64,000 nucleotides of DNA, from NCBI RefSeq assembly GCF_001677475.2, contig NZ_CP015229.1. One strand, written 5' to 3'. Source of the stretch: Escherichia coli. GTDB taxonomy: Bacteria > Pseudomonadota > Gammaproteobacteria > Enterobacterales > Enterobacteriaceae. A program made the position numbers and the translations under genes. Numbering within the stretch: position 1 is the first letter of the stretch; each line of letters begins with the position of its first letter. Positions 8,610 through 25,850 of the stretch are shown one piece after another. The notes under the pieces are model-generated. The model did no database searches. It was not told the origin of the DNA and saw only the letters and a list, made by a program, of their open reading frames with translations.

Positions 8610-8962
8610 AGAGATTCTTTTTGTTTTTCTTTTTGTCGGGATGCACTGTTGGTGATTATGTTCGCCCATTGTTACCCGGTAGTGTATATTTGCAAGACGG
8701 ACAGATTTGTTCAAAACCAGACGATGGGAATATTATTTCAAATTATGTTTTATATGAAGGTAAATATGGCAATGCAATAAAGTTGAAAAGAGTGACAGGT
8801 CAGTTCGAACCCGTATGTATTGATATAAGTGAGCTATCTTCAGATGTTATGTATATCGGGAAATATATGCTCTCTTCCGGAAGTAAAAAAGAATACTATG
8901 GTTTTAGCATAATTAGAACCGGAGAACGTATTTTAAGACTTGATGATAATCATATCAAATAA
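8606..8962 (+). CDS. Small lipoprotein (candidate periplasmic immunity/inhibitor protein)
   Basis: 118 aa; N-terminus MKRFFLFFFLSGC has signal peptide plus lipobox (LSGC); ATGA overlap with upstream HExxH gene. Confidence 0.55.
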   Translation: MKRFFLFFFLSGCTVGDYVRPLLPGSVYLQDGQICSKPDDGNIISNYVLYEGKYGNAIKLKRVTGQFEPVCIDISELSSDVMYIGKYMLSSGSKKEYYGFSIIRTGERILRLDDNHIK

Positions 8963-9183
8963 CAGATTAAATAATTTTATTAGTTTTATTAATGTACTTT
9001 AGGTGAATGTTTCCACCAGGTTAACATGACGGTGCATTCTTCAAGGCATATATGGTTGATAGTATCTTCAGTAGCATGCATAAGTATTGAGATGTTTTAT
9101 GCCAGCTACGAATATATTGCATGTTTTATTCTCTGTAAGATTTCTTATTAGCACTTATCCATTTCTAGTTAAAAGGATTAATT

Positions 9184-11178
9184 ATGAGTTTTGCAGCTAC
9201 AGATTATCCATCCGGCGCACTAACTGGATCGGGTACACATAACGTGACTTTGAGCGGCAGCGCAGTTCCTGATGGAATGTTACTGTTTGCAAGCTTAGGG
9301 GGTACAGAAACAGTAGGGGAACTATTTACTTATTCTATTAAATTAAAAACTCCTGACATCCTGAACCTGGGCTATGTTTCCCCCGCAGCCAACCTACAGC
9401 TCAAACCGATGGTGGGCAAAGATCTGTGCGTCAATATCGAATTGGATGGCGGCGGAAAACGTTACATCAGCGGGCTGGTGACGGCGGCACGCGTGGCTGG
9501 TCATCAAGGACGTTCGGTGGTGTATGAACTGCGGCTCGAACCGTGGTTAAAAATACTGACCCACACTAGTGACTACAAAGCGTTTCAAAATAAAAACGTG
9601 GTGGAGATCCTGGATGAGGTACTGGATGAGTACCCCTGGCCAGTGGAAAAACGACTGGTGGAAAATTATCCGACTCGCGCCTGGCAGGTGCAGTACGGTG
9701 AAACAGATTTCGATTTTATTCAGCGCCTGATGCAGGAGTGGGGTATCTACTGGTGGTTTGAGCACAGCGAGAACAGTCACACGTTAGTGCTGGCTGATGC
9801 CATTAATGTCCACAAGGCATGCGCAGATTCGCCGCTGGTGTGTTATTACCAGAAAGGGCTGAAACTGGACAAGGAGTTTATCCATACCATCACAGCAAAT
9901 GAAAGTCTGCGCAGCGGACAGTGGGTGCTGAATGATTTCGACTTTATGAAGCCGCGTTCACTGCTGAAGAGCACCGTGGCTAATCCGCGTGAAACCGGCC
10001 TTGCTGAATATGAGCACTACGAATGGCCGGGAGATTACTTCACAAAGAGTGAAGGTGAAATGCTGACACGCATTCGCATGGAAGAACAGCGTAGCCCCGG
10101 TAGTCGGGTACAGGGCAGCGGCAATATTCGTACCCTGATAACGGGTTTTACCTTCACCCTGGAAAACTATCCGACAGCCGAAGTGAACCGGGAATATCTG
10201 CTGGTACAGACCACGCTATTTATACAGGACAATGCGCAACACAGCGGCCAGGAGCAGCATTTCTCTTACTCAACCAGCTTTGAACTGCATCCCACCAGCG
10301 AAGTTTACCGCCCACAACGAACCCTGTGCAAACCCCACACTAAAGGCCCGCAGAGCGCAATCGTCACCGGCCCGGCAGGGCAGGAAATCTGGACAGATAA
10401 ATATGGACGGGTGAAAGTTCAGTTTGGCTGGGATCGTTACGGTAAGAATGACGAAAATAGTTCCTGCTGGGTCCGTGTCAGTTATCCGTGGGCGGGTAAA
10501 GGATTCGGTGGCATTCAGATCCCGCGCATTGGTCAGGAAGTACTGGTGGATTTCAAAAACGGTGATCCGGATTTACCGATAATTGTTGGGCGTACCTACA
10601 ACCAGGACACCATGCCACCGTGGGGACTACCGGGCGCAGCGACGCAAAGCGGATTTTACAGTCACACTATCGGCGGCGGCCCAACCAATGCCAACGCACT
10701 ACGTTTTGAGGATAAACCTGGCGGTGAAGAGGTCTGGCTACATGCCGAAAAAGATCAGCGGATTGAAGTAAATAATAATGAAAGCCACTGGGTGGGCAAT
10801 AATCGCCTTAAAGTCATTGATAAAACAGAAACAGCGATAATTGGTGAGGAACGTTCTCTTACAGTTCAGATGGATGATACCTCCCTTGCCGGACAAAACA
10901 AAACGATTCAGGCCGTACAGAATTTACGCCTTGCTGCGGGAGATTCCATAATTCTTAGTTGTGGGAACACTATCCTGCAAATGACCAGTGACGGAATATT
11001 TAATATAACCTGTAAGAATTTTAATATTACTGCAACAGAAAATGGAAAGATAAATACACAATCAGGTCAGCTTGATTTAAATATGAATAACAGGGCGGCA
11101 GATATACTTCCGCCTGGAACATCGGAAAAAACAGCCCTTCAATTGGCGATAGACGTCGCCTTCATGACTAAAAAATAA
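9184..11178 (+). CDS. vgrG: Type VI secretion spike protein VgrG
   Basis: 664 aa; N-terminal gp27-like and gp5-like OB/beta-helix sequence (e.g. [60 protein letters not shown]). Confidence 0.9.
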
Positions 11179-11228
11179 ACAAAAACCATCATTAAATAAT
11201 TTATTAATTTAAAAGGACTCATATCATT

Positions 11229-11681
11229 ATGACGGAGTATTATCTCAATGAAACTGTTGTAAGTTTTTCCGGGAATATTATTCAGGACAGTACTATTAAT
11301 ATGCTTCGCCTCAGCGATCCCGACGCTGCACTCATTATCAGCCGGGGCCAGATGCAGGAAGGAGACGAATTAGCCTCCCAGATTGAACAGCAAATGAAAA
11401 AACTGGAGAAACAGGTAAAGGATCTTCACTACACGCCCGTTCAGGTAACACGGGTGGGGATTAATGACGGTGAAGAAGGACTGGAAATACAGAGCCAGTT
11501 TCTCCGGGGTAACGAGCAGGTGTACCAGTGTCAGGTGGCATTTGTATTGCCGGGTGAGCGGGTCATGATGGCCTTCACCTACGCCCGAACCACACCGCTG
11601 ACCCCGGCAGATATGACGCGCTGGGCTGAAATTAAAAAGAATCTGCGCTTCAGGATGCGGCAGGAAGCCGGGACGAATTAA
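11229..11681 (+). CDS. DUF1795/Eag-family chaperone for prePAAR effectors
   Basis: 150-aa ORF between vgrG and the prePAAR Rhs gene; size and position typical of Eag/EagR chaperones; sequence-level family call not verified. Confidence 0.6.
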   Translation: MTEYYLNETVVSFSGNIIQDSTINMLRLSDPDAALIISRGQMQEGDELASQIEQQMKKLEKQVKDLHYTPVQVTRVGINDGEEGLEIQSQFLRGNEQVYQCQVAFVLPGERVMMAFTYARTTPLTPADMTRWAEIKKNLRFRMRQEAGTN

Positions 11682-11699
11682 TCACACAGGGAACGGGAC

Positions 11700-14600
11700 A
11701 TGGAAGAGGCATTCTGGGCGGCAAGGCAGGGTGATGCCCTGCTGCATACGTCGTTTATGGCAGATGTGCTGGGGGCAGTTGTAGAGGTTGCCGCCACAGC
11801 CCTGGTGGATGTTCTGGTTGTCGGAACCATGGCGGCGCTGGGCGGAGTTGAAGTGGCAACGCTGGGCTGCTCAACCATTTTAGCGATCGGTATAGCAACA
11901 GCGGTATTTATGTCGTATCAGGGCTGGAATGACCGAATCAGTAGGGAAAGTGAGCAACTGGCGAACTGGCTTTTCCCGCCTCAGATTGAAGGTTACATCC
12001 TCACCGGCTCTGGCGACACATGGATCAACAGCAAACCTGCCGCGCGGGCCGCGGCGACTGCGGCATCGCGGCAGGACATTGAGGCGCAGGAGGCGCAGGC
12101 GAAGGCGGAACAGGAAGAAGCGCAGCGTCAGGAGGATGCCAGAACGTTCCTGGATGTGGCCGGGGAATATCTGGAAATGGCGGGGGCCATAGCCCTGGCG
12201 GTTAACCCGGTGACAGGGCCTGTGCTGATGTCCCGGGCGCTGCACGACCAGCTCAGTACGGAAGAAGGGCGTTCTGAAATGGTGGATGGCGTGACACATT
12301 TTGTGTCGGAACTATGGCAGCCCACCGTGGCCAGTGCGGCCCCGGGCTCCACCCCGACCCCTGACGATAAAATCGACTGCCATAAACATCCCTCCTCACT
12401 GACGCAGTTTCTCGCACAAAAAAAAGCCGCCTTTCTGGATGACCCCCTGGGAACGGCCCTTAACCTGCTGAGTCCGGGCGGTATGCTGGAAACCGCCTTT
12501 CAGGGAGTGAATGCGGTTATTGGCAGCATCAGTAATCTGTTCAAAGGCGATGATGAACCGCCCGCAGCGGAATATATCGCGGAAGGCGCGCGGGATGTGC
12601 GTATCAACAGCCAGCCGGCGGCACGCAGCGGGGCACGCTGCACCTGCGAGGCCAGGGTGGTGAATGAGCCGGGGAACGGGGCGTTTGTGTCACCGGATGT
12701 CCGCATTGGCGGTCCGTTACTGGTGGTCAGGGATATCAGAAGCGGCAGGTCGCAGATAACCCTGGTGGCAACCGTGGCGCTGATGTTTCTTCGCCCGGGC
12801 AAAATGCTTTCTAAAATCGCCTGTTTTGCTGCCAGTGTCGGGATGGGGGTGATGACGCAGAAGGCCATCAGTGCCCTTCCGCATCCGGTCAATGCCGCCA
12901 CCGGAGCCAAATATCTGGCCGATGACGATGATTTTGACTTCAGTCTGCCGGGCCACTTTCCGCTGGACTGGCAGCGCGTGTACAGCAGTCGTGACGACCG
13001 CACGGAAGGGATGTTCGGGCAGGGCTGGAGTGTAATGTATGAAGTCAGCCTCGAGCGCACGCCGGGTACTGCTGACGAAAACTGTATGACCTTTGTGTCG
13101 GGCATGGGACGACGTCTGGATATGGAGGCCGTGCTGCCGGGGAGCGGGTTTTACAGCCCCGGCGAAGGACTGGCAGTACGGCGGGGTGAGCAGGGGCACT
13201 GGCTTATCAGCAGCGATGACGGGCAGTTTTTTCTGTTTGAGGCCGACCCGCGTCACCCGCAGCGCCAGCGGCTGAAAATGCTGGGCGACCGCAACAGCAA
13301 CTGTCTGAATCTGTACTACGACGAGCTGGGGCGCATCACGCAAATCAGCGGTGAACAGCAGCGTCCGTGCATCCGTCTGCATTATGAACTGGCGGCGCAT
13401 CCCCGGCGGGTGACACAGATTTATCAGCATTTCCCTGAGATGGCTCCTTTACTGCTGCGTCGTTACCGCTATGACGAGGCCGGCGACCTGAACGGCGTGT
13501 ACGACAGCACGGGGCACCTGCTGCGCGAGTTTGCTTACGACGAAAACCACTGCATGACCCTGCACCGCCAGCCGGGCGGCGAAGGGTATTATTACCAGTG
13601 GGGCTGGTATGAAGGCCCGGATGACGCAGCGTGGCGGGTGACGGGGCACCACACGGACAGCGGTGAACAGTACCGGCTGGCGTGGAGCCTGGCGGCACGC
13701 AGGCTGTGCGTGACGGACGGGCTGGGGCGCACGCGTTATCATCAGTGGGACGCGCAAAATCAGGTGACGGCGTACCAGGACGAAGCCGGGCAGGTGACGA
13801 CGTTCCGCTGGAGCGACGAAGAACGGCTGTTACTGGGAATGACCGATGCGCAGGGCGGCAAATGGCGCTATGTGTATGACCGGCAGGGGCATATCACGGA
13901 GACGCACGACCCGCTGGGGCGGGTGGCACAGACACAGTGGCACCCGGTGTGGCACCAGCCGGAAACGGAGGTGGACGCGGCGGGGAACAGCTGGTGCTGT
14001 GAGTACGATGAACGCGGCAATCTTCTTGCGGTGACCGACCCGCTGCAGCAGAACACCCGGTATCAGTATGACCGCCACGGCCAGGTGGTGCAGATAACGG
14101 ATGCGCGCGGGGGGAATAAATACCTTCAGTGGAACGAAGACGGGCAGCTCATGCGGCACACGGACTGTTCCGGCTCGCAGACGGCCTGGTTCTACGACGA
14201 ACGCACGCGGCTGATACGGATGACAGACGCGCAGAGCCACAGCACGCGCTACGGGTATGACGACAGCGGCCACCTGACGGAGGTGATACTGGCGGACGGC
14301 CGCACGGTGAATTACCAGTCGGACGCGGCGGGCAGGCTGGTGAAGTACACCAGCCCGATGGGGAGGATAACGCGCTGGCAGCGGGACGGGCAGGGCCGGG
14401 TGCGCAGCCGGACAGACGCGACGGGGCGCAGGACGGCGTTCGGGTACGATGCCTACGGGCGTCTGGTCACGCTCACGAACGAGAACGGAGAAAGCTACCG
14501 GTTCCGCCATGACGTGCTGGACCGTCTGGCGGAGCAGATAAATCCGGACGGCTGCCGCCAGACGTACCGCTACAACGCGCTGAACGCGGTCACGGAAGTG

Positions 14601-16415
14601 GTGTTCACCGGGGACCGGGGCGGTGAAATCCGCCACCGGCTGGCACGTGATGCGGCGGGCCGGCTCACGGCAAAGGAGACAGCCGATGGCCATACGGAAT
14701 ACGTCCATGATGCGGCAGACCAGCTACTGGAAATCCGCCGCCGACGGTCGGATGCCGGGGAAACAGACGCACCGGAGATTATCCGTTTCAGTTACGACAG
14801 ACTGGGGCGGATGCTGACCGAGGAGACGGCGCAGGGCGTCCTGACCCATCAGTACGATGAACTCAGCAACCGGACAGCCACCACCTTTCCGGATGGCAGA
14901 ACGCAGCGTCATCTGTACTACGGCAGCGGCCATCTCCAGCAGATAAATCTGGACCGGGAGGTCATCAGCGAGTTCACACGTGACGCCCTGCACCGGGAAG
15001 TGCTCAGAAGTCAGGGGCGACTGAGCACGCGGCAGCTTTATGACCCCGCCGGGCGGCTGAAGCGCAGGGAGACATACAGCGGGATGCGCGGGGTGGTACC
15101 GGAGACGTTCACGGACCGGCAGTACAGCTACAGCGGCGAGGATGAATTGCTGAAGACGCGGCACAGCCGGCGGGGGGAAACGGATTACGTCTACGACCCC
15201 ACGGGGCGCATCACGGCGTGCCGCTCGGAGGATGAGGGGTATCTGGCGAGCTGGCAGTACGACGCGGCGGGAAACCTGCTGGGGAGGCGCGCGGGGGAAA
15301 GGGCCACGGCAGAAAACAGCGTGGTGCCGTTCAACCGGCTGATGTCTTACCGTGGTGTGCACTACCGTTATGACGAATTTGGCCGGACGGTGGAAAAGGA
15401 GGGCCGGAGCGGCACGCAGAGTTACCGTTATGATGCGGAACACCGGATGGTGGAAGTGACGACAGCGCGGGGGACATACCGGTATGTGTACGATGCGCTG
15501 GGGAGGCGGACGGAAAAACAGCACATCAGCCCTGACGGTAAAGCGTACAACCGGACGACATTTTTATGGGACGGAATGCGGCTGGCGCAGGAGAGCAGGC
15601 CGGAGGGAATAAGCAGCCTGTATATCTACAGCGACCCGGGGAGTTATGAACCGCTGGCGCGGGTGGATAAGGCGGGCAAAGAGGGCCCGAACCGGATACT
15701 GTATTTTCACACGGATGTGAACGGTGCGCCGGAAGAGATGACGGACAGTGACGGGAAAATCGTGTGGGAGACGGGGTATCAGGTCTGGGGTAACACGATA
15801 CAGGAGAAGGACCACGGCGGGGTGGAGCAGAACCTGCGCTACCAGGGACAGTACCTCGACAGGGAAACGGGGCTGCACTACAATCTGCACAGGTACTATG
15901 ATCCGGATGTCGGGCGGTTCATGGTAACGGACCCGATAGGGCTGGCGGGGGGGCTGAATCTTTATACTTATGCGCCTAATCCAGTAAGCTGGATAGATCC
16001 CCTTGGTTTAAGTTGTTACTTTAATTCTAAGTCTAATCGCTGGCATGACAGGCAGACAGGTCGTTTTACAAAACGACCAACAGATCCTTCAGAATTAGTT
16101 CATAATGGCCGAATTGACAAGGCTGATATAGATGTTTGGGCTAGTCAAGGAGGGATTCCAAATACATGGGGGCATGATCCGTTAAAATTCCCCAGTGGTG
16201 GTTTTAAATATGATGCTGGTAATTATACTGTTCATGGTCATGGTGCTAATCCATCTGCGGCAGCTAAATTTCCTAATTCTAATGCGGCAAATGGGCCGAC
16301 AGCGAGCATGAAAAATACTTCAACAGGTGAAGTGTTTAGAACCGATGGAACTTGGGGGACATTCAAATCAGATGCCAATGGTGCTCATATCCCCCTTGAT
16401 GGCTCACCTTATTGA
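11700..16415 (+). CDS. Rhs-family T6SS effector with N-terminal prePAAR motif, transmembrane segments, PAAR region, YD-repeat shell and variable C-terminal toxin domain
   Basis: 1571 aa; AARQGDALLH matches the prePAAR AARxxDxxxH motif; hydrophobic stretches follow; two ...PAAR... segments; numerous YD repeats; DPIGL...DPLGLS demarcation then low-GC 134-aa tail. Confidence 0.9.
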   Translation: MEEAFWAARQGDALLHTSFMADVLGAVVEVAATALVDVLVVGTMAALGGVEVATLGCSTILAIGIATAVFMSYQGWNDRISRESEQLANWLFPPQIEGYILTGSGDTWINSKPAARAAATAASRQDIEAQEAQAKAEQEEAQRQEDARTFLDVAGEYLEMAGAIALAVNPVTGPVLMSRALHDQLSTEEGRSEMVDGVTHFVSELWQPTVASAAPGSTPTPDDKIDCHKHPSSLTQFLAQKKAAFLDDPLGTALNLLSPGGMLETAFQGVNAVIGSISNLFKGDDEPPAAEYIAEGARDVRINSQPAARSGARCTCEARVVNEPGNGAFVSPDVRIGGPLLVVRDIRSGRSQITLVATVALMFLRPGKMLSKIACFAASVGMGVMTQKAISALPHPVNAATGAKYLADDDDFDFSLPGHFPLDWQRVYSSRDDRTEGMFGQGWSVMYEVSLERTPGTADENCMTFVSGMGRRLDMEAVLPGSGFYSPGEGLAVRRGEQGHWLISSDDGQFFLFEADPRHPQRQRLKMLGDRNSNCLNLYYDELGRITQISGEQQRPCIRLHYELAAHPRRVTQIYQHFPEMAPLLLRRYRYDEAGDLNGVYDSTGHLLREFAYDENHCMTLHRQPGGEGYYYQWGWYEGPDDAAWRVTGHHTDSGEQYRLAWSLAARRLCVTDGLGRTRYHQWDAQNQVTAYQDEAGQVTTFRWSDEERLLLGMTDAQGGKWRYVYDRQGHITETHDPLGRVAQTQWHPVWHQPETEVDAAGNSWCCEYDERGNLLAVTDPLQQNTRYQYDRHGQVVQITDARGGNKYLQWNEDGQLMRHTDCSGSQTAWFYDERTRLIRMTDAQSHSTRYGYDDSGHLTEVILADGRTVNYQSDAAGRLVKYTSPMGRITRWQRDGQGRVRSRTDATGRRTAFGYDAYGRLVTLTNENGESYRFRHDVLDRLAEQINPDGCRQTYRYNALNAVTEVVFTGDRGGEIRHRLARDAAGRLTAKETADGHTEYVHDAADQLLEIRRRRSDAGETDAPEIIRFSYDRLGRMLTEETAQGVLTHQYDELSNRTATTFPDGRTQRHLYYGSGHLQQINLDREVISEFTRDALHREVLRSQGRLSTRQLYDPAGRLKRRETYSGMRGVVPETFTDRQYSYSGEDELLKTRHSRRGETDYVYDPTGRITACRSEDEGYLASWQYDAAGNLLGRRAGERATAENSVVPFNRLMSYRGVHYRYDEFGRTVEKEGRSGTQSYRYDAEHRMVEVTTARGTYRYVYDALGRRTEKQHISPDGKAYNRTTFLWDGMRLAQESRPEGISSLYIYSDPGSYEPLARVDKAGKEGPNRILYFHTDVNGAPEEMTDSDGKIVWETGYQVWGNTIQEKDHGGVEQNLRYQGQYLDRETGLHYNLHRYYDPDVGRFMVTDPIGLAGGLNLYTYAPNPVSWIDPLGLSCYFNSKSNRWHDRQTGRFTKRPTDPSELVHNGRIDKADIDVWASQGGIPNTWGHDPLKFPSGGFKYDAGNYTVHGHGANPSAAAKFPNSNAANGPTASMKNTSTGEVFRTDGTWGTFKSDANGAHIPLDGSPY

Positions 16416-16425
16416 GATTATTAAT

Positions 16426-16755
16426 ATGAATTTGCAAGAAATAAAAAATAAAGTCTTATCTCTTCCTACAATAATGAATTTAGCGGATGAGCTATTAATA
16501 ATTGACGAGTTGATGACTATTGATGTTAATGATTTGATTGAAAATCAAGATATCTTTAAATCTATTATAGATGCATTAGAATTATCACATATTGATTCTG
16601 GGTTTATGGAGTTAACAGAAGAAAATGAGAGTTCATTTATAAACTTCTACAAATGGCTTAATAAAACAAATAATAAATTTAACTTGGGAATAAATGCTAA
16701 CACTATAGATAGTTTTAGTTTGACTGTTGAAGATGTGAAAAAAATGATGTTATAG
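16426..16755 (+). CDS. Candidate Rhs immunity protein
   Basis: Track ORF 16327..16755 overlaps the rhs 3' end; first ATG after the rhs stop is 16426 (109 aa); AT-rich like the Rhs C-terminal domain; position immediately after toxin domain. Confidence 0.5.
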   Translation: MNLQEIKNKVLSLPTIMNLADELLIIDELMTIDVNDLIENQDIFKSIIDALELSHIDSGFMELTEENESSFINFYKWLNKTNNKFNLGINANTIDSFSLTVEDVKKMML

Positions 16756-16766
16756 ATAAAATATAA

Positions 16767-16800
16767 AGCCGGGAATATGATCTCCCGGCTTTTTTATTAT
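16767..16800. terminator. Bidirectional rho-independent terminator between immunity gene and symE-like gene
   Basis: AGCCGGGA-loop-TCCCGGCT hairpin followed by TTTTTTATTATT. Confidence 0.6.
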
Positions 16801-17130
16801 TCAACTCTCGTTCAGTACACTAAACATCCCGTTCCGCATCCCCTTAACCACCTGTTTAACCTGATAAAGCTCCTCCCGCAGTTCCTGCATCTCGTCACTG
16901 TCAGCGATGATGGTCAGGCACCCATCCGAGATCTTTACAGTCACGCCTGTCCCGGTATCAAATCCCGCCTCTTTCAGCCAGTCGCCCTTAAGGTGCAGGC
17001 TGGGGTGTTGTGAATAATACCGGGCTATACCGGTTGTGCGATCTTCGTGGCGGGCTCTGACATAGCCGACTTTATAGCGGCGCTGTGTTTTGGAAATGGT
17101 GACTTCTGGCGTAATATCGTGTTCAGCCAT
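16801..17130 (-). CDS. SymE-family toxin homolog (AbrB-fold, type I toxin family), copy 1
   Basis: 109 aa; LHLKGDWLKEAGFDTGTGVTVKISDGCLTI resembles the K-12 SymE core (LKGQWLEAAGFATGT...EGCIVLT) as I recall it; GAGGTAG RBS. Confidence 0.8.
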   Translation of the reverse strand: MAEHDITPEVTISKTQRRYKVGYVRARHEDRTTGIARYYSQHPSLHLKGDWLKEAGFDTGTGVTVKISDGCLTIIADSDEMQELREELYQVKQVVKGMRNGMFSVLNES

Positions 17131-17195
17131 GATTAACTACCTCGATTAGTTGCTTGTGGTGAGCGGCTGTTACAGGCGGCAACCTGTAGCAGTCG
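17124..17195 (+). ncRNA. Predicted cis-antisense sRNA overlapping the symE-like start (SymR-like antitoxin RNA candidate), copy 1
   Basis: Plus-strand sigma70-like promoter inside the symE 5' coding region (TTGGAA, 16-nt spacer, TAATAT at about 17090-17117) and a downstream hairpin (about 17166-17192) whose non-Watson-Crick positions are G-U wobbles only in the plus-strand transcript. Confidence 0.35.
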
Positions 17196-17202
17196 CGTTA
17201 AA

Positions 17203-17432
17203 TATCAACGCATTACCTTCATTACCTGCTTCATCTTCTCCTGCGTGATCGCCATATCCAGAATGCGGCAGATCACTTCCTGATCGTCTGCTTTAAGCTC
17301 ATCAACCTGCTTACACAGTTCCTTTAACCGCTTGTTTTTAATATCGAAAACAGGAGCGGTGGAACCTTCTTCACCCAACAGCAGGTGGTCAATACTGACT
17401 TCCAGAAGCTGGGCCAGCTTAATGATGTAATC
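17203..17432 (-). pseudogene. 3' remnant of an XRE-family HTH regulator gene truncated by the H-repeat element
   Basis: Minus-strand frame reads ...DYIIKLAQLLEVSIDHLLLGEEGSTAPVFDIKNKRLKELCKQVDELKADDQEVICRILDMAITQEKMKQVMKVMR-stop with no start codon; frame closes just inside the IS end. Confidence 0.45.
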
Positions 17433-18722
17433 AGGGAAAGATCACGTAATGCTGCTTTTTTGTACTAAACAATTCGCATTTTATGTTTAAAAATTGAGAT
17501 ATTCCTCATTACATAAAGCTGTTTTTTATTGCTTATACATGATCAAATACTCCTTACATAATTAAGGAGAACAAAATGGAACTTAAAAAATTGATGGAAC
17601 ATATTTCTATTATCCCCGATTACAGACAAGCCTGGAAAGTGGAACATAAATTATCGGATATTCTACTGTTGACTATTTGTGCCGTTATTTCGGGTGCAGA
17701 AGGCTGGGAAGATATAGAGGATTTTGGGGAAACACATCTCGATTTTTTGAAGCAATATGGTGATTTTGATAATGGTATTCCTGTTCACGATACCATTGCC
17801 AGAGTTGTATCCTGTATCAGTCCTGCAAAATTTCACGAGTGCTTTATTAACTGGATGCGTGACTGCCATTCTTCAGATGATAAAGACGTCATCGCAATTG
17901 ATGGAAAAACGCTCCGGCATTCTTATGACAAGAGTCGCCGCAGGGGAGCGATTCATGTCATTAGTGCGTTCTCAACAATGCACAGTCTGGTCATCGGACA
18001 GATCAGGACGGATGAGAAATCAAATGAAATTACAGCTATCCCTGAACTTCTTAACATGCTGGATATTAAAGGAAAAATCATCACAACTGATGCGATGGGT
18101 TGCCAGAAAGATATTGCAGAGAAGATACAAAAACAGGGAGGTGATTATTTATTCGCTGTAAAAGGAAACCAGGGGCGGCTAAATAAAGCCTTTGAGGAAA
18201 AATTCCCACTGAAAGAATTAAATAATCCAGAGCATGACAGTTACGCAATTAGTGAAAAGAGTCACGGCAGAGAAGAAATCCGTCTTCACATTGTTTGCGA
18301 TGTCCCTGATGAACTTATTGATTTCACGTTTGAATGGAAAGGACTGAAGAAATTATGCGTGGCAGTCTCCTTTCGGTCAATAATAGCAGAACAAAAGAAA
18401 GAGCCAGAAATGACGGTCAGATATTATATCAGTTCTGCTGATTTAACCGCAGAGAAGTTCGCCACAGCAATCCGAAACCACTGGCACGTGGAGAATAAGC
18501 TGCACTGGCGTCTGGACGTGGTAATGAATGAAGACGACTGCAAAATAAGAAGAGGAAACGCCGCAGAATTATTTTCAGGGATACGGCACATCGCTATTAA
18601 TATTTTAACGAATGATAAGGTATTCAAGGCAGGGTTAAGACGTAAGATGCGAAAAGCAGCCATGGACAGAAACTATCTCGCGTCAGTCCTTGCGGGGAGC
18701 GGGCTTTCGTAATCTTGCCCTG
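17432..18722 (+). mobile_element. ISAs1-family (H-repeat type) insertion sequence, intact copy
   Basis: About 1.29 kb; imperfect terminal inverted repeats CAGGGAAAGATCAC / (rc) CAGGGCAAGATTAC; single 378-aa transposase ORF. Confidence 0.75.
17576..18712 (+). CDS. ISAs1-family transposase (H-repeat-associated protein)
   Basis: 378 aa; sequence strongly resembles E. coli H-rpt proteins (YdcC/YhhI type) from memory. Confidence 0.85.
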
Positions 18723-18736
18723 ACCATCTGACGGAT

Positions 18737-18922
18737 GTGGCTGGTAATCCATCAAACATTGCTAATAGATTTTCAAAGGTCATTGATGGAAAAGATGTTC
18801 AGTTTGTTACTAAGGACTCTTTATTTGCCGGGCCGAGCGGTAAGTTTGCGCAATTTGAATCTACTTGGCAGGTTTTGGATAATGGTTCATTACGATTAAC
18901 AACAGTGATCCCGAAATTATGA
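18737..18922 (+). CDS. Possible orphan toxin C-terminal fragment downstream of the IS
   Basis: 61-codon GTG-initiated ORF whose frame opens exactly at the IS right end; AT-rich; ATGA overlap with next ORF. Confidence 0.3.
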   Translation: MAGNPSNIANRFSKVIDGKDVQFVTKDSLFAGPSGKFAQFESTWQVLDNGSLRLTTVIPKL

Positions 18923-19239
18923 TTAGAGAATTTGAAGAGAAAATGTCTGATTTGTTTGGTGTTGATGCAACATCATTCGATCCTGAATATGCGCAGTGGA
19001 CATATTTATTTAAGAAGGGTTTATTTTCACTTGAATTTGTTTATGCTCTGGATAAAACAATATCTACGGCTTTATATTATAATGAAAATTTATTGTCTTT
19101 TTATTTTGCCAATGGTCTGGAACACCTTAGCATAGAAGACAATAAAATTCATGGTGTTATTGTTAAAGGTAATACAACCAGAAAACTAGAGATAGATCCA
19201 TTAAATTTAATTATAAAATGGGAAGATTCATTAATATAA
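18919..19239 (+). CDS. Possible orphan immunity protein
   Basis: 106 aa, AT-rich, translationally coupled to the upstream fragment; same position relative to terminator/symE as the rhs immunity gene. Confidence 0.35.
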   Translation: MIREFEEKMSDLFGVDATSFDPEYAQWTYLFKKGLFSLEFVYALDKTISTALYYNENLLSFYFANGLEHLSIEDNKIHGVIVKGNTTRKLEIDPLNLIIKWEDSLI

Positions 19240-19280
19240 TGATTGCAATATTCCATTTCAATAAGAAATAACCAATAAAA

Positions 19281-19320
19281 AGCCGGAGTGCTATTAAATC
19301 TTCCGGCTTTTTTATTATTT
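19281..19320. terminator. Bidirectional rho-independent terminator (copy 2)
   Basis: AGCCGGAG-loop-CTTCCGGCT hairpin followed by TTTTTTATTATTT. Confidence 0.55.
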
Positions 19321-19648
19321 AATTCTCGTTCAGCACACTAAACATCCCGTTCCGCATCCCCTTAACCACCTGTTTAACCTGATAAAGTTCCTTCCTCAGT
19401 TCCTGCACCTCGTCGCGCTCCGCAATCAGGATCAGGCACCCCTCCGAGATTTTCACAGTCACGCCCGTCCCGGTATCAAATCCCGCCTCAGCGAGCCAGT
19501 CGCCTTTAAGGTGCAGGCTGGGGTGCCGTGAATAATACGTGGTCATGCCTGTTTTACTGTTCTGATGGCGGGCGCTGACATAGCCCACCTGATACTGGCG
19601 CTGTGTTTTGGAAATGGCGACTTCTGGCGTAATATCGTGTTCAGCCAT
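19319..19648 (-). CDS. SymE-family toxin homolog, copy 2
   Basis: 109 aa, about 80 percent identical to copy 1 by eye; same RBS and flanks. Confidence 0.8.
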   Translation of the reverse strand: MAEHDITPEVAISKTQRQYQVGYVSARHQNSKTGMTTYYSRHPSLHLKGDWLAEAGFDTGTGVTVKISEGCLILIAERDEVQELRKELYQVKQVVKGMRNGMFSVLNEN

Positions 19649-19716
19649 GATTAACTACCTCTGTTAGTTGCTTGTGGTGAGCAGATTGTCAGTGTTGGTA
19701 GCACTGGCAATCTGCG
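19642..19716 (+). ncRNA. Predicted cis-antisense sRNA overlapping symE-like start, copy 2
   Basis: Same promoter-like hexamers (about 19608-19635) and a 13-bp-arm hairpin (about 19682-19714) with a single T-G position that pairs only in the plus-strand RNA. Confidence 0.35.
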
Positions 19717-19889
19717 TTAAAAATCAGTGTATTACTCTCTTTTCCATGGAAAGATCACGTAACGCTGCTTTTTTGTACTAAATAATTCGCATTTTATGTT
19801 TAAAAATTGAGATATTCCTCATTACCTAAAGCTGTTTTTTTATTGCTTATACATGATCAAATACTCCTTACATAATTAAGGAGAACAAA

Positions 19890-20372
19890 ATGGAACTTAA
19901 AAAATTGATGGAACATATTTCTATTATCCCCGATTACAGACAAGCCTGGAAAGTGGAACATAAATTATCGGATATTCTACTGTTGACTATTTGTGCCGTT
20001 ATTTCGGGTGCAGAAGGCTGGGAAGATATAGAGGATTTTGGGGAAACACATCTCGATTTTTTGAAGCAATGTGGTGATTTTGATAATGGTATTCCTGTTC
20101 ACGATACCATTGCCAGAGTTGTATCCTGTATCAGTCCTGAAAAATTTCATGAGTGCTTTATTAACTGGATGCTTGACTGCCATTCTTCAGATGATAAAGA
20201 CGTCATTGCAATTGATGGAAAAACGCTCCGGTACTCTTATGACAAGAGTCGTCGCAAGGGAGCGATTCACGTTATTAGTGTGTTCTCAATAATGCACAGT
20301 CAGATTCCTTGGAAGATCAAGACGAATAAAAAAACAATGAGATTACAGCTGTTTCTGAATTTCTTAACATAA
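19890..20372 (+). pseudogene. Degraded second ISAs1/H-repeat transposase gene (N-terminal 130 aa conserved, then divergent and truncated)
   Basis: 160-aa ORF identical in its first part to the intact copy, then diverging into ...[31 protein letters not shown]; element upstream sequence conserved from about 19745. Confidence 0.7.
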
Positions 20373-20513
20373 TGGGTATTAAAGGAAAAATAATTGCACC
20401 GATCCAATGTGATACCAGAAAGACATCGCTAAGAAGATAGCTATAGACAATTATTACCCTCCGTCAGCCCTTGTTAAGCGAGGAGAGACGTAATCTGTCC
20501 AGTCCCCTAATGC

Positions 20514-21611
20514 TTATAAAGCCCATCGATTTCGCCCACTTTCTTTCGCCCGGTATAACGCAGCGTCGGCATCTGAAATAATTTGTTCAGCCGTTTTTGC
20601 GGGAGCAGAACAGGTAATCCCCTGACTAACCGTAACGAATGCATTAACAGCAGATGCCTGATGTGGGATAGCTGCCAGTTTAAGTTCTTGCTTCACTCTG
20701 GCTGCTACCGTCTCTGCTTCCGGCAATGTTGCATTAAAAAGTATGATGGCAAACTCTTCGCCACCATAACGGACAACAACATCCTCCGACTGGCGAGTTG
20801 AACGCTGTAGAGCGTCGGCAACTTGTATTAGACAACGATCCCCAGCAGGATGCCCGTAAGTGTCGTTGTAACGTTTAAAAAAATCGACATCCAGCATAAT
20901 AAGAGCAAATGACCCGCCGTTATCTATCGCGTCGTGTAAGATACTGTTCATTGCACGTCGGTTTGCTATCCCAGTTAAAGGATCACGATGTGCTAATGCA
21001 TCAAGGCGATTAATTAACTGGTTGTTATAACTGTTTTGTACCCATGCTTCTTCAAACCAACGTAACAAAATGAGTCGCCCACCATATAGCGCCAGTGAAA
21101 AAATACACCATACAACAGCAAAATGAATATTGATCTGTTGATTAAGCATAAGACTCGCTATTGGAGTGGTGAACCATAAGGGAATGACAAATGCGAGCAA
21201 TGATGGGGTATGGAAATAAAGTGCGACAACGCCACTAAGCATTAATAATACACATAGTGGATAAGCAAACTGCAGCGTCCAGTACGCAATAAAGTGATAA
21301 CTACACCATGACCATAGCAGGCTCAGGGCAACTAATAGCACCTGGATAGGTAATGTTTTTTGCCGAGGGATGAGTAGTAAACCACTGCAAATCAGCAGAA
21401 TACCCGTTGCAGATATATCAATAGAATGTATAAGGCTTTTTTCATTTAACCAGGGTGGAGTAAGGTCATTAAACAGAACACGGCGCAGCAAAATTATCAA
21501 TGCAAAACTGACATTGATAAAAGCAAACCATGGCAAACTAATCGTCATGCCGCGAATAACCATATCGCGGCGGGTTTTCCATGAGTGATGCGTTTTTCTT
21601 CGTTCAGCCAT
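20514..21611 (-). CDS. Membrane-anchored diguanylate cyclase (GGDEF domain)
   Basis: 365 aa; N-terminal hydrophobic helices; RYGGEEF active-site motif. Confidence 0.8.
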   Translation of the reverse strand: MAERRKTHHSWKTRRDMVIRGMTISLPWFAFINVSFALIILLRRVLFNDLTPPWLNEKSLIHSIDISATGILLICSGLLLIPRQKTLPIQVLLVALSLLWSWCSYHFIAYWTLQFAYPLCVLLMLSGVVALYFHTPSLLAFVIPLWFTTPIASLMLNQQINIHFAVVWCIFSLALYGGRLILLRWFEEAWVQNSYNNQLINRLDALAHRDPLTGIANRRAMNSILHDAIDNGGSFALIMLDVDFFKRYNDTYGHPAGDRCLIQVADALQRSTRQSEDVVVRYGGEEFAIILFNATLPEAETVAARVKQELKLAAIPHQASAVNAFVTVSQGITCSAPAKTAEQIISDADAALYRAKESGRNRWAL

Positions 21612-21657: not shown

Positions 21658-23634
21658 TTATGGTGTCACTATATTGAACCAAAATTCAAAATTATCCATA
21701 TAACCTAACAGCTCGTTGAGTTTTTCCGCATTGCCAGTAATTTTGACATCTCCTTTGGCCGTGGCTTCTTTCAGCGTCTCTTCTTTCAGTACAATTTTGT
21801 TCAATACATCACGAGACAGAGTGATAGTGGCATCAGCATCCGAAGCCTCTACACCAGCGGTATGATTGAGAACACCATTTTCAAGCTCCACTTTATAGGT
21901 GCCGCCATCTTCACCAAAATCGAAATTCAACACGGTTTTGGCATCTGCCGCTTTCTCACCATTAATATGGACGGCAAGATAATCAAAGAACATCTCCGGC
22001 GTCATCGCACGCACGGTGTCTGGGCTGGCAGTATTTGGTGTTGGTAATTTTTGTACGCCATTACGCAATTCCTGTGCGCCAGTGAGATAGAAATTACGCC
22101 ACGGCCCAGATTCAGCCTGATAGCCTAACTGCTCAAGCGCATCAGCTTCCAGATCTCTCGCTGCCTGGTTGTTTGGATCGGCAAACACCACCTTACTAAC
22201 AACTTGGGCAACCCAGCGGAAATTACCCTGGTCATAATCCTGTTTGGCTTTCTGTAAAATGGTATCAGCACCGCCCATATACTCGACGAATTTTTTTGCG
22301 CCTTCTTCTGGCGGCAGTTCATCAAGCGTCGCGGGGTTACCATCAAACCAGCCGAGATAAAGCACGTAAGTTGCTTTCACGTCATGACTTACCGAACCGT
22401 AATAGCCGCGATTCGCCCAGGTGTTAGCCAGTGAAGAGGGCAGTTTAAAGTTTGCGGCAATTTCATCACGGGTCTTCCCTTGATTAGCCATGCGCAGAGT
22501 TTGATCATTGATGTAACGATACAAATCACGCTGGCTTTTAAGCAGTTTGACCACGTTATCGTTGCCCCAGGTTGGCCAGTGATGTTGAGCGAGAATAATC
22601 TCGGCTTTATCACCCCACAAATTGAGAGCTTCATTAATATATTTTGACCACGGCAGCGGTTGGCGAATTTTAGCCCCACGCAGCGAATAGGTGTTATGAA
22701 GGGTGTGCGTGACATCTTCAGCGGTTTCGATCAGTTTCTTTTCTTCAATAAACCACAGCATTTCAGAAGGCGCTTCAGAACCTGGCGCCATCAGGAAATC
22801 ATAAGTCAACCCGTCAATAGTTTCTTTTTGTCCGGTTTTGGTGATGTAGTTAGTAGGAGCAATCAACGTGACTGTTCCTGCTGAAGTAGTCGTTCCCAGT
22901 CCAGCCCCCACCTGGCCTTTAACATCAGGTTTCAATAAGTTGCCATACATATAACTGGCTCGTCGGCTCATAACATTGCCAGCCATGATGTTTTCGGAAA
23001 CGGCTTCCTCCAAAAATCCGGCTGGCGCATAGATTTTAACTTTGCCTGATTTAACGTCAGCTTCATCAATTACGCCACGAACACCACCGTAGTGATCGAC
23101 ATGACTGTGTGTATAGATAACCGCCACTACCGGTTTTTTGCCGCGATTTTTGTAATAGAGATCCATACCCACTTTGGCTGTTTCTGCTGAAACAAGGGGA
23201 TCAACGACGGTAATACCCTCTTTGCCTTCAATGATGGTCATATTTGATAGATCGAGATTGCGAATCTGATAGACACCTTCAGTTACTTCGAATAACCCGC
23301 TGATATTTATCAGTTGCGCCTGACGCCATAAACTCGGATTCACCGTATCAGGGGCTTTATCGCCTTCTTTGATAAAAGCGTATTGTTGTGGATCCCAGAT
23401 AACATTCCCTTGTTCGCCCTTAATCACGTCTTGAGGAATAGGGGCAATAAAACCTTTATGGGCATCAGTAAAGTCAGTGTTATCGGCAAACGGCAACTGG
23501 TTGTAGAGTAAATTGTTTGCTTGTTGCGTGGCTGCGGTGGCGTCTTTAGGAGCTTCCGCCGCGAGGAGAGGTAAAGAACTGGTGGTGAATAATCCCGTTA
23601 TTAGCAGACTTTTAACGATATGATTAAGCTGCAT
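21658..23634 (-). CDS. Secreted alkyl/aryl-sulfatase-like metallo-beta-lactamase-fold enzyme (SdsA1/YjcS type)
   Basis: 658 aa; signal peptide; THSHVDHYGG metallo-beta-lactamase motif; overall resemblance to alkyl sulfatases (from memory). Confidence 0.75.
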   Translation of the reverse strand: MQLNHIVKSLLITGLFTTSSLPLLAAEAPKDATAATQQANNLLYNQLPFADNTDFTDAHKGFIAPIPQDVIKGEQGNVIWDPQQYAFIKEGDKAPDTVNPSLWRQAQLINISGLFEVTEGVYQIRNLDLSNMTIIEGKEGITVVDPLVSAETAKVGMDLYYKNRGKKPVVAVIYTHSHVDHYGGVRGVIDEADVKSGKVKIYAPAGFLEEAVSENIMAGNVMSRRASYMYGNLLKPDVKGQVGAGLGTTTSAGTVTLIAPTNYITKTGQKETIDGLTYDFLMAPGSEAPSEMLWFIEEKKLIETAEDVTHTLHNTYSLRGAKIRQPLPWSKYINEALNLWGDKAEIILAQHHWPTWGNDNVVKLLKSQRDLYRYINDQTLRMANQGKTRDEIAANFKLPSSLANTWANRGYYGSVSHDVKATYVLYLGWFDGNPATLDELPPEEGAKKFVEYMGGADTILQKAKQDYDQGNFRWVAQVVSKVVFADPNNQAARDLEADALEQLGYQAESGPWRNFYLTGAQELRNGVQKLPTPNTASPDTVRAMTPEMFFDYLAVHINGEKAADAKTVLNFDFGEDGGTYKVELENGVLNHTAGVEASDADATITLSRDVLNKIVLKEETLKEATAKGDVKITGNAEKLNELLGYMDNFEFWFNIVTP

Positions 23635-23939
23635 CTTAAGCGTCTCCAGAATGGATTTTTATTGGAGGTAATTACGGATGAAAATTTTTAGTGAGGGCAA
23701 GAATAACTATAATGGGCGTTAACAAATTGGCAAGCCGGGAACTTGATGTTTTCTTAATGGCATGTTGGCGAAGAATATATTCTGCAAGTTAACGTTTTCA
23801 TTGGCGCTTTATTTAAAAGTGTGTAGTACAAATATGTACAATTTCAAGTAGGCATTATTGCCGTAAAAACGCATTACCGGACACACGACATTCACAACGT
23901 GTGTTAATTTTACTGACATCTTTCAAAAGGAGCACAATC

Positions 23940-24167
23940 ATGCCGCACATAGACATTAAATGTTTTCCGCGTGAACTGGACGAACAACAAAAAGCAGCAC
24001 TTGCTGCAGATATTACCGACGTTATTATTCGCCATCTGAACAGTAAAGATAGCTCGATAAGCATTTCTCTACAGCAGATTCAACCAGAATCTTGGCAAGC
24101 TATCTGGGATGCCGAAATCGAGCCCCAAATGGAGGCTTTGATAAAGAAACCCGGTTACAGCATGTAA
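23940..24167 (+). CDS. pptA: Tautomerase PptA
   Basis: [33 protein letters not shown]... start at internal Met of track ORF 23901..24167. Confidence 0.8.
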
Positions 24168-24170
24168 TGC

Positions 24171-24740
24171 TTAACCTGCCGTAACACGCTTGCCGCTGGT
24201 AACAAATGTGCCAGCACCTAAATGATGCAACGTATTGAGTTTATCATCATCAAACTGCCAGCGGCCTTCGACAAATACCCGTGCGTCTGCCGCTGCTGAT
24301 ACTACCTCGCCAAACAGAGTGTCGTATTTTTCTTGCGCAGAAGTCGCAGGTAGCAGGCGACACTCCATCCACGCCAGACATTTTTCCTCGACCAGCGGCA
24401 AACCAAGCACCGGACCTTTCACAACTGGAATACCATAGCAATTAAACTTATCTTCATCACGCCCCGACACACTTCCCACCGCCCACGTCCAGTTAGTTGC
24501 TGCAACACCCGGGATAACGATGCCAAACTTACCATTACGTTCAATCAACTCCCTGGTCCATGTCGATTTATCTACCACAATCGCCACGCGTGGCGGTTCA
24601 AACTCCACCGGCATCGACCAGGCTGCTGCCATAATGTTACGCCGCTGGGATTGCTCATCGAAACTGGTGATCAAGACAGTAGGTCCATGATTTAACAGAC
24701 GGCTGGCATGGTGTAATTCGACGGGAATGAATTGGCTCAC
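24171..24740 (-). CDS. yddH: Flavin reductase-like protein YddH
   Basis: 189-aa ORF; matches E. coli YddH from memory; synteny. Confidence 0.75.
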   Translation of the reverse strand: MSQFIPVELHHASRLLNHGPTVLITSFDEQSQRRNIMAAAWSMPVEFEPPRVAIVVDKSTWTRELIERNGKFGIVIPGVAATNWTWAVGSVSGRDEDKFNCYGIPVVKGPVLGLPLVEEKCLAWMECRLLPATSAQEKYDTLFGEVVSAAADARVFVEGRWQFDDDKLNTLHHLGAGTFVTSGKRVTAG

Positions 24741-24914
24741 GATAACGCCTCGCTATGAAGGGTGTTTTAAAAGCGTAGCTCGTAACGCAATAAGTAACGA
24801 AATTAACGGGATTGGCGATTTGCGAACGTGATGCATGTCCGCGATCGCACAAAATAGCCGGTGCGGCGTCTATTCCAGGTTATAAGTTGAGAAAACCACT
24901 AAGGGAAACGCCTG

Positions 24915-25760
24915 ATGACGCCCATTCTGAATCATTATTTTGCCCGTATTAACTGGTCGGGAGCTGCTGCGGCCAATATTGATACGCTGCGTGCATTGCA
25001 CCTGAAACACAATTACACCATTCCGTTTGAAAATCTCGACGTTTTGCTGCCGAGGGAAATACAGCTTGATGATCAATCGCTGGAAGAGAAACTGGTGATA
25101 GCCCGTCGTGGCGGTTACTGTTTTGAGCAGAATGGCGTGTTTGAGCGGGTGTTACGCGAGCTGGGGTTTAACGTTCGCAGCTTGTTAGGGCGCGTAGTGT
25201 TATCAAATCCGACAGCATTACCGCCGCGCACCCATCGTTTGCTGTTGGTGGAACTGGAAGGGGAAAAATGGATTGCTGATGTCGGTTTCGGTGGGCAGAC
25301 GCTAACCGCGCCGATTCGTTTAGTTTCCGATCTCGTGCAGACCACGCCACACGGAGAGTATCGGTTGTTGCAGGAGGGTGATGATTGGGTGTTGCAGTTT
25401 AATCATCATCAGCATTGGCAGTCGATGTACCGTTTTGATCTCTGCGAGCAGCAACAAAGCGATTATGTGATGGGCAATTTCTGGTCGGCGCACTGGCCGC
25501 AGTCGCATTTTCGCCATCATTTGCTGATGTGCCGCCATTTGCCGGACGGTGGCAAGCTGACACTGACCAATTTTCATTTTACCCATTATGAAAATGGGCA
25601 CGCGGTGGAGCAGCGAAATCTACCGGATGTGGCGTCGTTATATGCTGTGATGCAAGAACAGTTTGGTCTGGGCGTAGATGATGCGAAACATGGCTTTACT
25701 GTGGATGAGTTAGCGCTGGTGATGGCGGCGTTTGATACGCACCCGGAGGCGGGAAAATAA
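24915..25760 (+). CDS. nhoA: Arylamine N-acetyltransferase NhoA
   Basis: 281 aa; catalytic Cys context RGGYCFEQN; synteny. Confidence 0.85.
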   Translation: MTPILNHYFARINWSGAAAANIDTLRALHLKHNYTIPFENLDVLLPREIQLDDQSLEEKLVIARRGGYCFEQNGVFERVLRELGFNVRSLLGRVVLSNPTALPPRTHRLLLVELEGEKWIADVGFGGQTLTAPIRLVSDLVQTTPHGEYRLLQEGDDWVLQFNHHQHWQSMYRFDLCEQQQSDYVMGNFWSAHWPQSHFRHHLLMCRHLPDGGKLTLTNFHFTHYENGHAVEQRNLPDVASLYAVMQEQFGLGVDDAKHGFTVDELALVMAAFDTHPEAGK

Positions 25761-25769
25761 TTTATGTCA

Positions 25770-25850
25770 GGTTGCCGGATGTGGCGTAAACGCCTTATCC
25801 GGCATACATTAGCCCGGTTGTAGACCTGATAAGCGAAGCGCATCAGGCAA
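25770..25850. repeat. REP/BIME palindromic repeats
   Basis: GCCGGATGTGGCGTAAACGCCTTATCCGGC and TGTAGACCTGATAAGCGAAGCGCATCAGGCA units. Confidence 0.6.

Follow-up and report, generated by a model that had tools for sequence, protein, structure and literature searches.

Whether an intact insertion sequence (IS) and a decayed relative lying a short distance downstream can recombine, and what such an exchange would remove, is the question raised by one locus in the 64,000-nucleotide stretch of Escherichia coli DNA analysed here (referred to as the window), in which the distal part of a type VI secretion system (T6SS) cluster is located. A sequence-only reading of this stretch had proposed that homologous recombination between the two copies, hereafter copies A and B, would delete or amplify the genes between them. 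The pair is bracketed by the following genes.

11700–16415, + strand: main PAAR-Rhs effector of the T6SS cluster (Pfam RHS_repeat, DUF6531, RHS and PAAR)
20514–21611, − strand: MASE5-GGDEF diguanylate cyclase (Pfam), directly to the right of the relic and the same neighbour in all comparison loci

A VgrG gene (9184–11178) and a DcrB/Eag-like gene are located upstream of the effector, as in an unrelated E. coli locus used for comparison (L001), and a small gene follows downstream of it. To the right of the cyclase gene are genes for an alkyl sulfatase, pptA, yddH, and nhoA.

The intact element comprises the following features.

17432–18722, + strand: copy A, intact ISEc1/H-repeat of the ISAs1 family, 1,291 bp (full-length DNA identity and inverted repeats)
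17432–17445, + strand: left terminal inverted repeat of copy A, CAGGGAAAGATCAC
18709–18722, − strand: right terminal inverted repeat of copy A, CAGGGCAAGATTAC (reverse complement of the right end), matching the left one at 12/14 positions
17576–18712, + strand: transposase, 378 aa, full length, the single ORF of copy A (Pfam and NCBIfam)

Members of the ISAs1 family, as described in ISfinder, are ~1.2–1.3 kb in length and possess short, imperfect terminal inverted repeats beginning with CAGGG. Copy A agrees with this description both in size and in its two ends, each of which opens with CAGGG. When the inverted-repeat motif was searched with up to two mismatches in the 64-kb window, it was found at both ends of copy A, at the left end of copy B, at one unrelated site, and nowhere else. 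Over all 1,291 bp, copy A shares 98.7% DNA identity with elements annotated in many complete E. coli genomes as ydcC, ‘ISAs1-like element ISEc1 family transposase’, exceeding the naming threshold of at least 95% DNA identity to ISEc1. The transposase matches the Pfam models DDE_Tnp_1_assoc (9.5e-34) and DDE_Tnp_1 (2e-30) and the NCBIfam model NF033564 transpos_ISAs1 (415.8 bits; cutoff 70), and is identical to YdcC of strain SK1144 at 376 of 378 residues. Judged by sequence, copy A is an intact ISEc1 element (the classic H-repeat of the E. coli Rhs elements), and it conforms to every such expectation for ISAs1/ISEc1 membership except the presence of a flanking target duplication. The intact element with recognisable inverted repeats, as originally delimited, is thereby confirmed to the base. 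The ydcC H-rpt of the RhsE region resembles copy A not only in length, DNA, and protein but also in its chromosomal site (ansP ... pptA–yddH–nhoA) and in its association with Rhs C-terminal tips. Copy A differs in being located inside a full T6SS–Rhs locus, between symE1 and an orphan cassette and 2.3 kb from a conserved relic. H-rpt beside C-terminal tips has also been described in the genome paper of E. coli W, according to which no transposition of H-rpt has been observed (PMC3032704).

A decayed copy had also been predicted downstream of the intact element, and it was found to retain only the 5′ part of the H-repeat.

19745–20440, + strand: copy B, truncated H-repeat relic, 5′ ~695 bp only
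19890–20372, + strand: residual ORF of copy B, 160 aa, N-terminal domain only (Pfam DDE_Tnp_1_assoc, no DDE domain)
17522–17756, + strand: 235-bp perfect block in copy A, the crossover interval of the natural deletion forms
19836–20070, + strand: 235-bp perfect block in copy B, the partner of 17522–17756

Copy B begins at 19745 with CATGGAAAGATCAC, can be aligned to about 20440, and lacks the 3′ 600 bp. The two copies reside on the same strand in direct orientation with an offset of 2,313–2,314 bp. In their first 555 bp they differ at 18 positions (96.8% identity), and in the final 141 bp the divergence rises to about 31% (roughly 70% identity). Perfect blocks of 235, 68, and 42 bp occur in the alignment. 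RecA-dependent exchange requires roughly 25–30 bp of uninterrupted identity as a minimum, and the perfect blocks of this directly repeated pair extend far above that length. The initial estimate of about 500 bp of near-identical sequence in direct orientation, ~2.3 kb apart, can thus be refined to the values given above, and the 235-bp perfect block removes the concern that the repeats might prove too diverged upon precise alignment. The H-repeats are part of a larger repeated unit, in which the symE region forms a second direct repeat (16780–17164 versus 19298–19682; 87% identical, longest perfect run 53 bp). As a rival substrate, this symE1/symE2 repeat is much poorer, and the natural junctions described below fall in the H-repeat.

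Copy B is orthologous to a pseudogene that many E. coli carry beside the GGDEF gene, annotated as ‘ISAs1 family transposase, frameshifted, incomplete’. The single-unit arrangement Rhs–immunity–symE–relic–cyclase–sulfatase is found in many E. coli. Copy B is an old 5′ remainder of a related H-repeat, fixed beside the diguanylate cyclase gene in E. coli with this T6SS–Rhs locus, and copy A is the newcomer. A different origin, namely recent gene conversion or local duplication of one element in place of two separate elements, would also account for the similarity between A and B. Copy B is indeed chimeric, with 3.2% divergence over 555 bp followed by 31% over 141 bp (Fisher p = 2e-19), and this profile suggests an earlier conversion of its 5′ part by an ISEc1-like copy. 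However, the relic of L001, which comes from an unrelated E. coli without copy A, displays the same chimeric divergence profile and shares its base with copy B at 58 of the 65 variable sites, whereas only one site is common to A and B against L001. Recent conversion of B by A is ruled out by these 58 sites; any conversion must therefore be ancient and did not involve copy A of this genome, and an origin of the pair by recent conversion or duplication is extremely improbable.

The interval between the two copies runs through the remainder of copy A, a toxin tip, an immunity gene, and symE2, in that order.

16801–17130, − strand: symE1, SymE-family toxin, 109 aa, located to the left of copy A and kept in the deletion form (Pfam SymE_toxin, 6.1e-22)
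18723–18922, + strand: Rhs toxin tip of 66 codons, truncated at its 5′ side by the right end of copy A, with a frame open to the IS end
18919–19239, + strand: intact orphan immunity gene (106 aa), with an ATG at 18919 that overlaps the TGA stop of the toxin at 18920–18922
19319–19648, − strand: symE2, SymE-family toxin, 109 aa (Pfam SymE_toxin, 1e-20)
19449–19577, + strand: isrA-family RNA match, antisense within symE2 (Rfam RF01385, 103.8 bits; gathering 51)
19643–19718, + strand: candidate SymR-like antisense RNA over the symE2 start (Rfam RF01809, 48.3 bits, E 3.9e-7; gathering 61)

The toxin tip has no match in Pfam or NCBIfam, and a protein search with it recovered only two small clusters, both of which also consist of fragments. 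It is 94–95% identical to a longer fragment in an orphan array of Escherichia marmotae, where the toxin tip/immunity pair as a whole is found at 94%. The exact 106-aa immunity protein is present in the same context in at least 20 public contigs, and a megablast comparison of the immunity gene with 5,426 complete E. coli genomes gave no match. A small predicted immunity ORF overlapping the toxin stop codon is what an orphan cassette is expected to contain; Rhs core homology and a complete C-terminal toxin domain are absent from the tip, of which 66 codons remain beyond the H-repeat end that cuts it. The orphan Rhs toxin is a dead stub beside a putative live immunity gene. Because the tip carries no Rhs core, its fusion to the main rhs gene cannot activate the orphan toxin. 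Both symE ORFs match the Pfam SymE model (PF08845), but they score 52 bits against the NCBIfam SymE equivalog, under its cutoff of 132, indicating that symE1 and symE2 are paralogs and not the symE of K-12 itself. The RNA matches at symE1 are similarly arranged (isrA at 16931–17059, above gathering, and SymR-like at 17125–17199), and the two SymR-like matches (48.3 and 38.5 bits, both below the RF01809 gathering threshold of 61) are located on the antisense strand over each symE start. The repeats had been described as flanking symE2 and an orphan cassette, collectively called toxin genes. Their position is as described, but the cargo consists of one symE, one immunity gene, and one toxin stub, and symE2 is the only intact toxin gene among them.

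To find natural variants of the locus, exact-protein look-ups were performed in draft assemblies. The two-unit form, which carries both copies, was found at 99.9–100% identity in at least 10 assemblies. One of these (L019) spans 15946–19172 at 100%, and four others (L007, L008, L011, and L012) extend from the H-repeat across the relic as far as nhoA at 99.9–100%. A form with a single, hybrid H-repeat was identified in two independent drafts, GCA_031341795.3 (L016/L036; a 53-kb contig) and GCA_034608915.1 (L037; seen in two samples), whose left flanks depart from that of the window at 0–7 positions and which match it downstream at 99.8–99.9%. In L016, the region corresponding to 15615–17431 contains 0 mismatches in 1,817 bp. 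Its H-repeat is of the A type at 17434, 17450, 17470, and 17513 and at a 1-bp indel at 17521 (all five diagnostic sites) and of the B type from 17757 onward, including two SNPs private to the relic of this lineage. The right part then continues at 99.9% to 26444, through the genes for the diguanylate cyclase and the sulfatase, pptA, yddH, and nhoA. L037 carries the same hybrid H-repeat. Both assemblies therefore combine the flank of the left copy, the flank of the right copy, and a single diagnostic switch, which is located within the 235-bp perfect block in each. The symE1 gene of L037 differs from that of the window at seven positions, five of which have the symE2 base, whereas symE1 of L016 shows no difference. 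The five shared bases suggest that both paralogs once coexisted. The accession series of L037 also differs from that of L016, suggesting a different submitter or project. As the two share the crossover interval, they may descend from a single ancestral event. A further look-up with the diguanylate cyclase protein yielded the common single-unit arrangement and no additional deletion-form contigs.

These findings make it very probable that ordinary homologous recombination between copies A and B has left its deletion product in public genomes of near-identical strains. The exchange would have occurred by intramolecular loop-out or by unequal sister-chromatid exchange, the latter of which would also be expected to generate a reciprocal duplication, and it was presumably RecA-dependent. 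The 2,313/2,314 bp lost would take with them two-thirds of the transposase gene (its 3′ portion), the dead toxin tip together with the orphan immunity gene, and the symE2 module with its candidate antisense RNAs, and the remaining product would be a hybrid relic with the left flank of A and the body of B. The direction was probably that of a deletion from a two-unit ancestor, because symE2–spacer–relic–cyclase is the common E. coli arrangement and forms lacking it are thus derived. Protection against the cognate Rhs toxin, one symE paralog, and the only intact transposase of the locus would have been lost as a consequence. The initial proposal is thus supported for deletion, whose product is present in the two drafts, but not for amplification, since no amplified or duplicated form was found among the public assemblies.

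The hybrid contigs could also have arisen in other ways. If repeats had been collapsed across the 235-bp block during assembly, the hybrids would be artefacts and the pair a merely theoretical substrate. None of the two-unit form, the deletion form, the HTH–IS junction at 17431, and the orphan cassette was found in the 5,426 complete E. coli genomes, so that the evidence for the deletion comes entirely from short-read drafts; and in L006, another draft of the lineage, an N-joined scaffold junction is located inside the H-repeat, so that assemblies can mislead at this site. However, the same junction is present in two assemblies of different accession series, which are distinguishable by the seven SNPs in symE1, and neither hybrid contig contains an N. 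The drafts of at least eight two-unit genomes break at the repeat without any wrong bridging, their contigs either ending at 17520–17542 or forming 2.1-kb loop contigs that span 17653–19834. Since two-unit drafts break at the repeat and the hybrids contain no N, an assembly artefact is very unlikely. Somewhat less remote, but still improbable, is that L016 and L037 are sibling products of horizontal replacement and not deletion derivatives of the two-unit form. A segment comprising Rhs core, C-terminal tip, immunity gene, symE1, HTH remnant, and H-repeat A would have been imported by two crossovers, the left one within the Rhs core and the right one within the resident relic, and the form seen in the window would represent a longer import with its right crossover in symE2. 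Compared with the common E. coli arrangement, the region from the Rhs core (about 15953) to the symE2 terminator (about 19279) is indeed replaced as a block, and related genomes offer possible donors, since other arrays in them contain the C-terminal tip–immunity–symE1–HTH module (99.7%) and the H-repeat–tip junction (97.6%). Nevertheless, this scenario requires one and the same segment to have entered the same background in two separate imports (0 mismatches over the 1,817 bp to the left, 99.9% identity to the right), and one import plus one deletion is simpler; moreover, the symE2-like patches in symE1 of L037 point to past coexistence of the two paralogs. Because the crossover would be located in H-repeat homology under the import scenario as well, the reading of the pair as a recombination substrate survives in either case.

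Two further drafts from the look-ups differ from both forms. L018 agrees with the window in its left flank and H-repeat but carries another tip/immunity cassette to the right of them, which could be the result of a cassette swap or of an assembly choice through the multi-copy IS. L006 (GCA_018428365.1) was considered as an inter-locus recombinant linking the H-repeat of this locus with ybgA–phrB of the rhsC locus and was rejected, as the N-containing join is a scaffold junction and its other join is located inside a shared repeat.

How copy A reached its present position is a separate question. No target-site duplication was detected around it; the left flank, ending in TAATGATGTAAT, and the right flank, beginning with ACCATCTGACGG, have no repeat in common and are 5′-truncated pieces of two unrelated genes. 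The combination of a missing duplication and unrelated truncated flanks argues against simple insertion at the present site and does not affect the identification of copy A as ISEc1. The piece on the left is the following.

17205–17431, − strand: 3′ remnant of an XRE-type HTH gene, 74 codons, its 5′ end cut by the left end of copy A, with a frame open to the IS end

The translation of this remnant runs through YIIKLAQLLEVSIDHLLLGE right up to the end of copy A. An intact HTH gene of 131–132 aa, to whose 3′ part the remnant is 98% identical, precedes symE in 58 E. coli genomes; in other E. coli, this intact gene also adjoins genes for a DnaG-like primase and a tyrosine recombinase. On the right, homology to the E. 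marmotae orphan array starts at 18724, directly at the end of the element, and in that array the coding sequence extends further upstream than the toxin tip of the window. Several kilobases were probably lost at this junction. As the genes that meet at copy A are unrelated and both truncated, and no target duplication is present, copy A seems to have reached its present junction through an earlier IS-associated deletion. At the same chromosomal site in other E. coli, such as K-12-like and ST131-like genomes, an intact H-repeat is found at the junction of much larger deletions. The order is vgrG fragment, rhs fragment, symE fragment, HTH remnant, H-repeat, 67-bp sulfatase fragment, and pptA in one such genome (L004), where the HTH remnant is cut at a different point, equivalent to 17301, and ansP, H-repeat, and yddH in another (L005). 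When compared by eye without alignment, the spacer to the left of the relic (19713–19744) resembles the last codons of the HTH gene (17195–17225). The precise left end of the H-repeat thus abuts the HTH gene at three different positions, one of which was recognised by eye only, and three such cut points would be the pattern expected of IS-associated adjacent deletions.

H-repeats in Rhs loci and IS-mediated homologous deletion have both long been known, as have IS copies as portable homology, and the events at this locus are ordinary, well-understood biology that does not change the understanding of IS elements, Rhs loci, or recombination. They indicate that in one lineage an IS copy and an IS relic recombined in nature within an Rhs/T6SS locus, removing an orphan immunity gene and a symE module, and they provide a small, concrete example of the pruning of an immunity repertoire. 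The practical value concerns annotation and assembly, in that short-read assemblies break at this site and strains of the lineage differ by a 2.3-kb indel. The closest experimental parallel is Salmonella Typhimurium LT2, in which recombination between rhs-main and rhs-orphan over 522 bp at 95% identity has been demonstrated (Koskiniemi et al. 2014, PMC3967940). There, too, ~0.5-kb direct repeats of ~95% identity in an Rhs locus recombine and the intervening immunity gene is removed. However, the LT2 repeats consist of Rhs coding sequence and their exchange yields a functional new toxin fusion that is under selection, whereas in the window the shared sequence is that of an IS, activation of the orphan toxin is impossible, and the exchange results in a simple loss. 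In the group D2 O-antigen clusters of Salmonella, an H-repeat remnant is located at the D1/E recombination junction (PMC3715488). As in the window, a truncated H-repeat there marks the junction of segments with different origins, but the proposed process is transposition with cointegrate resolution between gene clusters, not local deletion between resident copies.

A wider and speculative reading, which is more probably wrong than right, is that the two H-repeats provide more than passive homology. The conserved linkers of the arrays, namely the 5′ end of the H-repeat, the symE/symR module, and the relic of an HTH–primase–tyrosine recombinase unit, would then constitute a cassette-exchange system that shuttles Rhs toxin-tip/immunity cassettes between arrays of E. 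coli and Escherichia. At least three such arrays would take part, the rhsE locus (that of the window), the rhsC–ybgA locus, and the fadE-proximal locus of E. marmotae. If so, the primase–integrase islands would be the original vehicles that loaded cassettes beside symE, and ISEc1 would still be active enough to generate nested adjacent deletions, because the HTH gene is cut at three points by the precise left end of the H-repeat. Islands of this type, roughly 6 kb in size, occur in tandem in strain D6.

The conserved truncated H-repeat (window 19745-20440; also 9468-10162 in comparison locus L001) is chimeric. Its divergence from ISEc1 rises from 3.2% in the first 555 bp to 31% in the final 141 bp (Fisher p = 2e-19), and because the two portions differ in this way, the relic is suggested to derive from a diverged ISAs1-family element that was anciently converted by an ISEc1-like copy.

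The left ends of the H-repeats are associated with a single gene encoding an XRE-type helix-turn-helix (HTH) protein, which is abutted at three different breakpoints, each time by a precise H-repeat left end:

Window 17431, left end of the intact H-repeat
L004 (a K-12-like strain) ~6050, equivalent of window 17301
Window 19744, left end of the relic, equivalent of ~17225 as compared by eye, without alignment

The three breakpoints form the pattern expected of nested adjacent deletions generated by an IS, here the H-repeat, an element whose transposition has never been demonstrated (PMC3032704).

The HTH remnant at window 17205-17431 is itself the relic of a 5.9-kb unit, which is present as a tandem repeat (51-5934 and 6686-12567; copies 98.9% identical) in the rhsC-ybgA locus of E. 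coli strain D6 (L003, NZ_CP010148.1). The unit comprises symE, the XRE-type HTH gene, genes for a DnaG-like primase (910 aa) and a tyrosine recombinase (351 aa), and one hypothetical gene, and each copy is followed by a cassette of ~0.7 kb, the two cassettes being different from one another. The unit resembles a small integrative element with Rhs orphan cassettes as cargo. Decayed versions of it were found in two other comparison loci (L009 and L017), and a literature search for rhs orphan arrays with integrase and primase genes in E. coli returned unrelated papers only.

The toxin stub and immunity gene (window 18723-19318) gave no megablast match among 5,426 complete E. coli genomes. In Escherichia marmotae (CP188181.1), an orphan array close to fadE/ivy matches this segment at 94% identity, implying that the cassette is shared between different species and loci. 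Among complete E. coli genomes, the best match to the housekeeping genes on the flank (window 21700-25800, sulfatase to nhoA) reached 98.8% identity, so that the lineage of the window is one with no close relative in the complete RefSeq set.

Comparison locus L018 (GCA_025810455.1) is 100% identical to the window over 3,108 bp, from the Rhs tip and immunity gene through symE1 and the HTH remnant to the H-repeat. In the 761 bp to the right of its H-repeat, the place of 18723-19239 is taken by a different toxin tip of ~106 codons (...YGHTFSEHG...) and a gene for a 126-aa immunity protein. Either a swap of cassettes at the H-repeat or a choice of path during assembly could account for the difference. 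In L006 (GCA_018428365.1, 3831-4630), the 5' part of the intact H-repeat is joined to an internally deleted H-repeat end and then to ybgA-phrB of the rhsC locus, after which the scaffold contains a single N and the H-repeat again from position 117. An inter-locus recombinant was considered for L006 and rejected, the single N making the scaffold join unreliable.

Both symE paralogs contain antisense isrA-family RNA matches scoring above the Rfam gathering threshold, and SymR-like matches below it overlie their start codons:

16931-17059, + strand, isrA-family match in symE1, above gathering
19449-19577, + strand, isrA-family match in symE2, above gathering
17125-17199, + strand, SymR-like match over the symE1 start codon, below gathering
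19643-19718, + strand, SymR-like match over the symE2 start codon, below gathering

Ssr1 matches were also present, scoring far below gathering. In L037 (GCA_034608915.1), a draft with the deletion form, symE1 differs from that of the window at seven sites (equivalent to window 16924-17110). At five of them the base is that of symE2, which has the appearance of patchy conversion between the paralogs.
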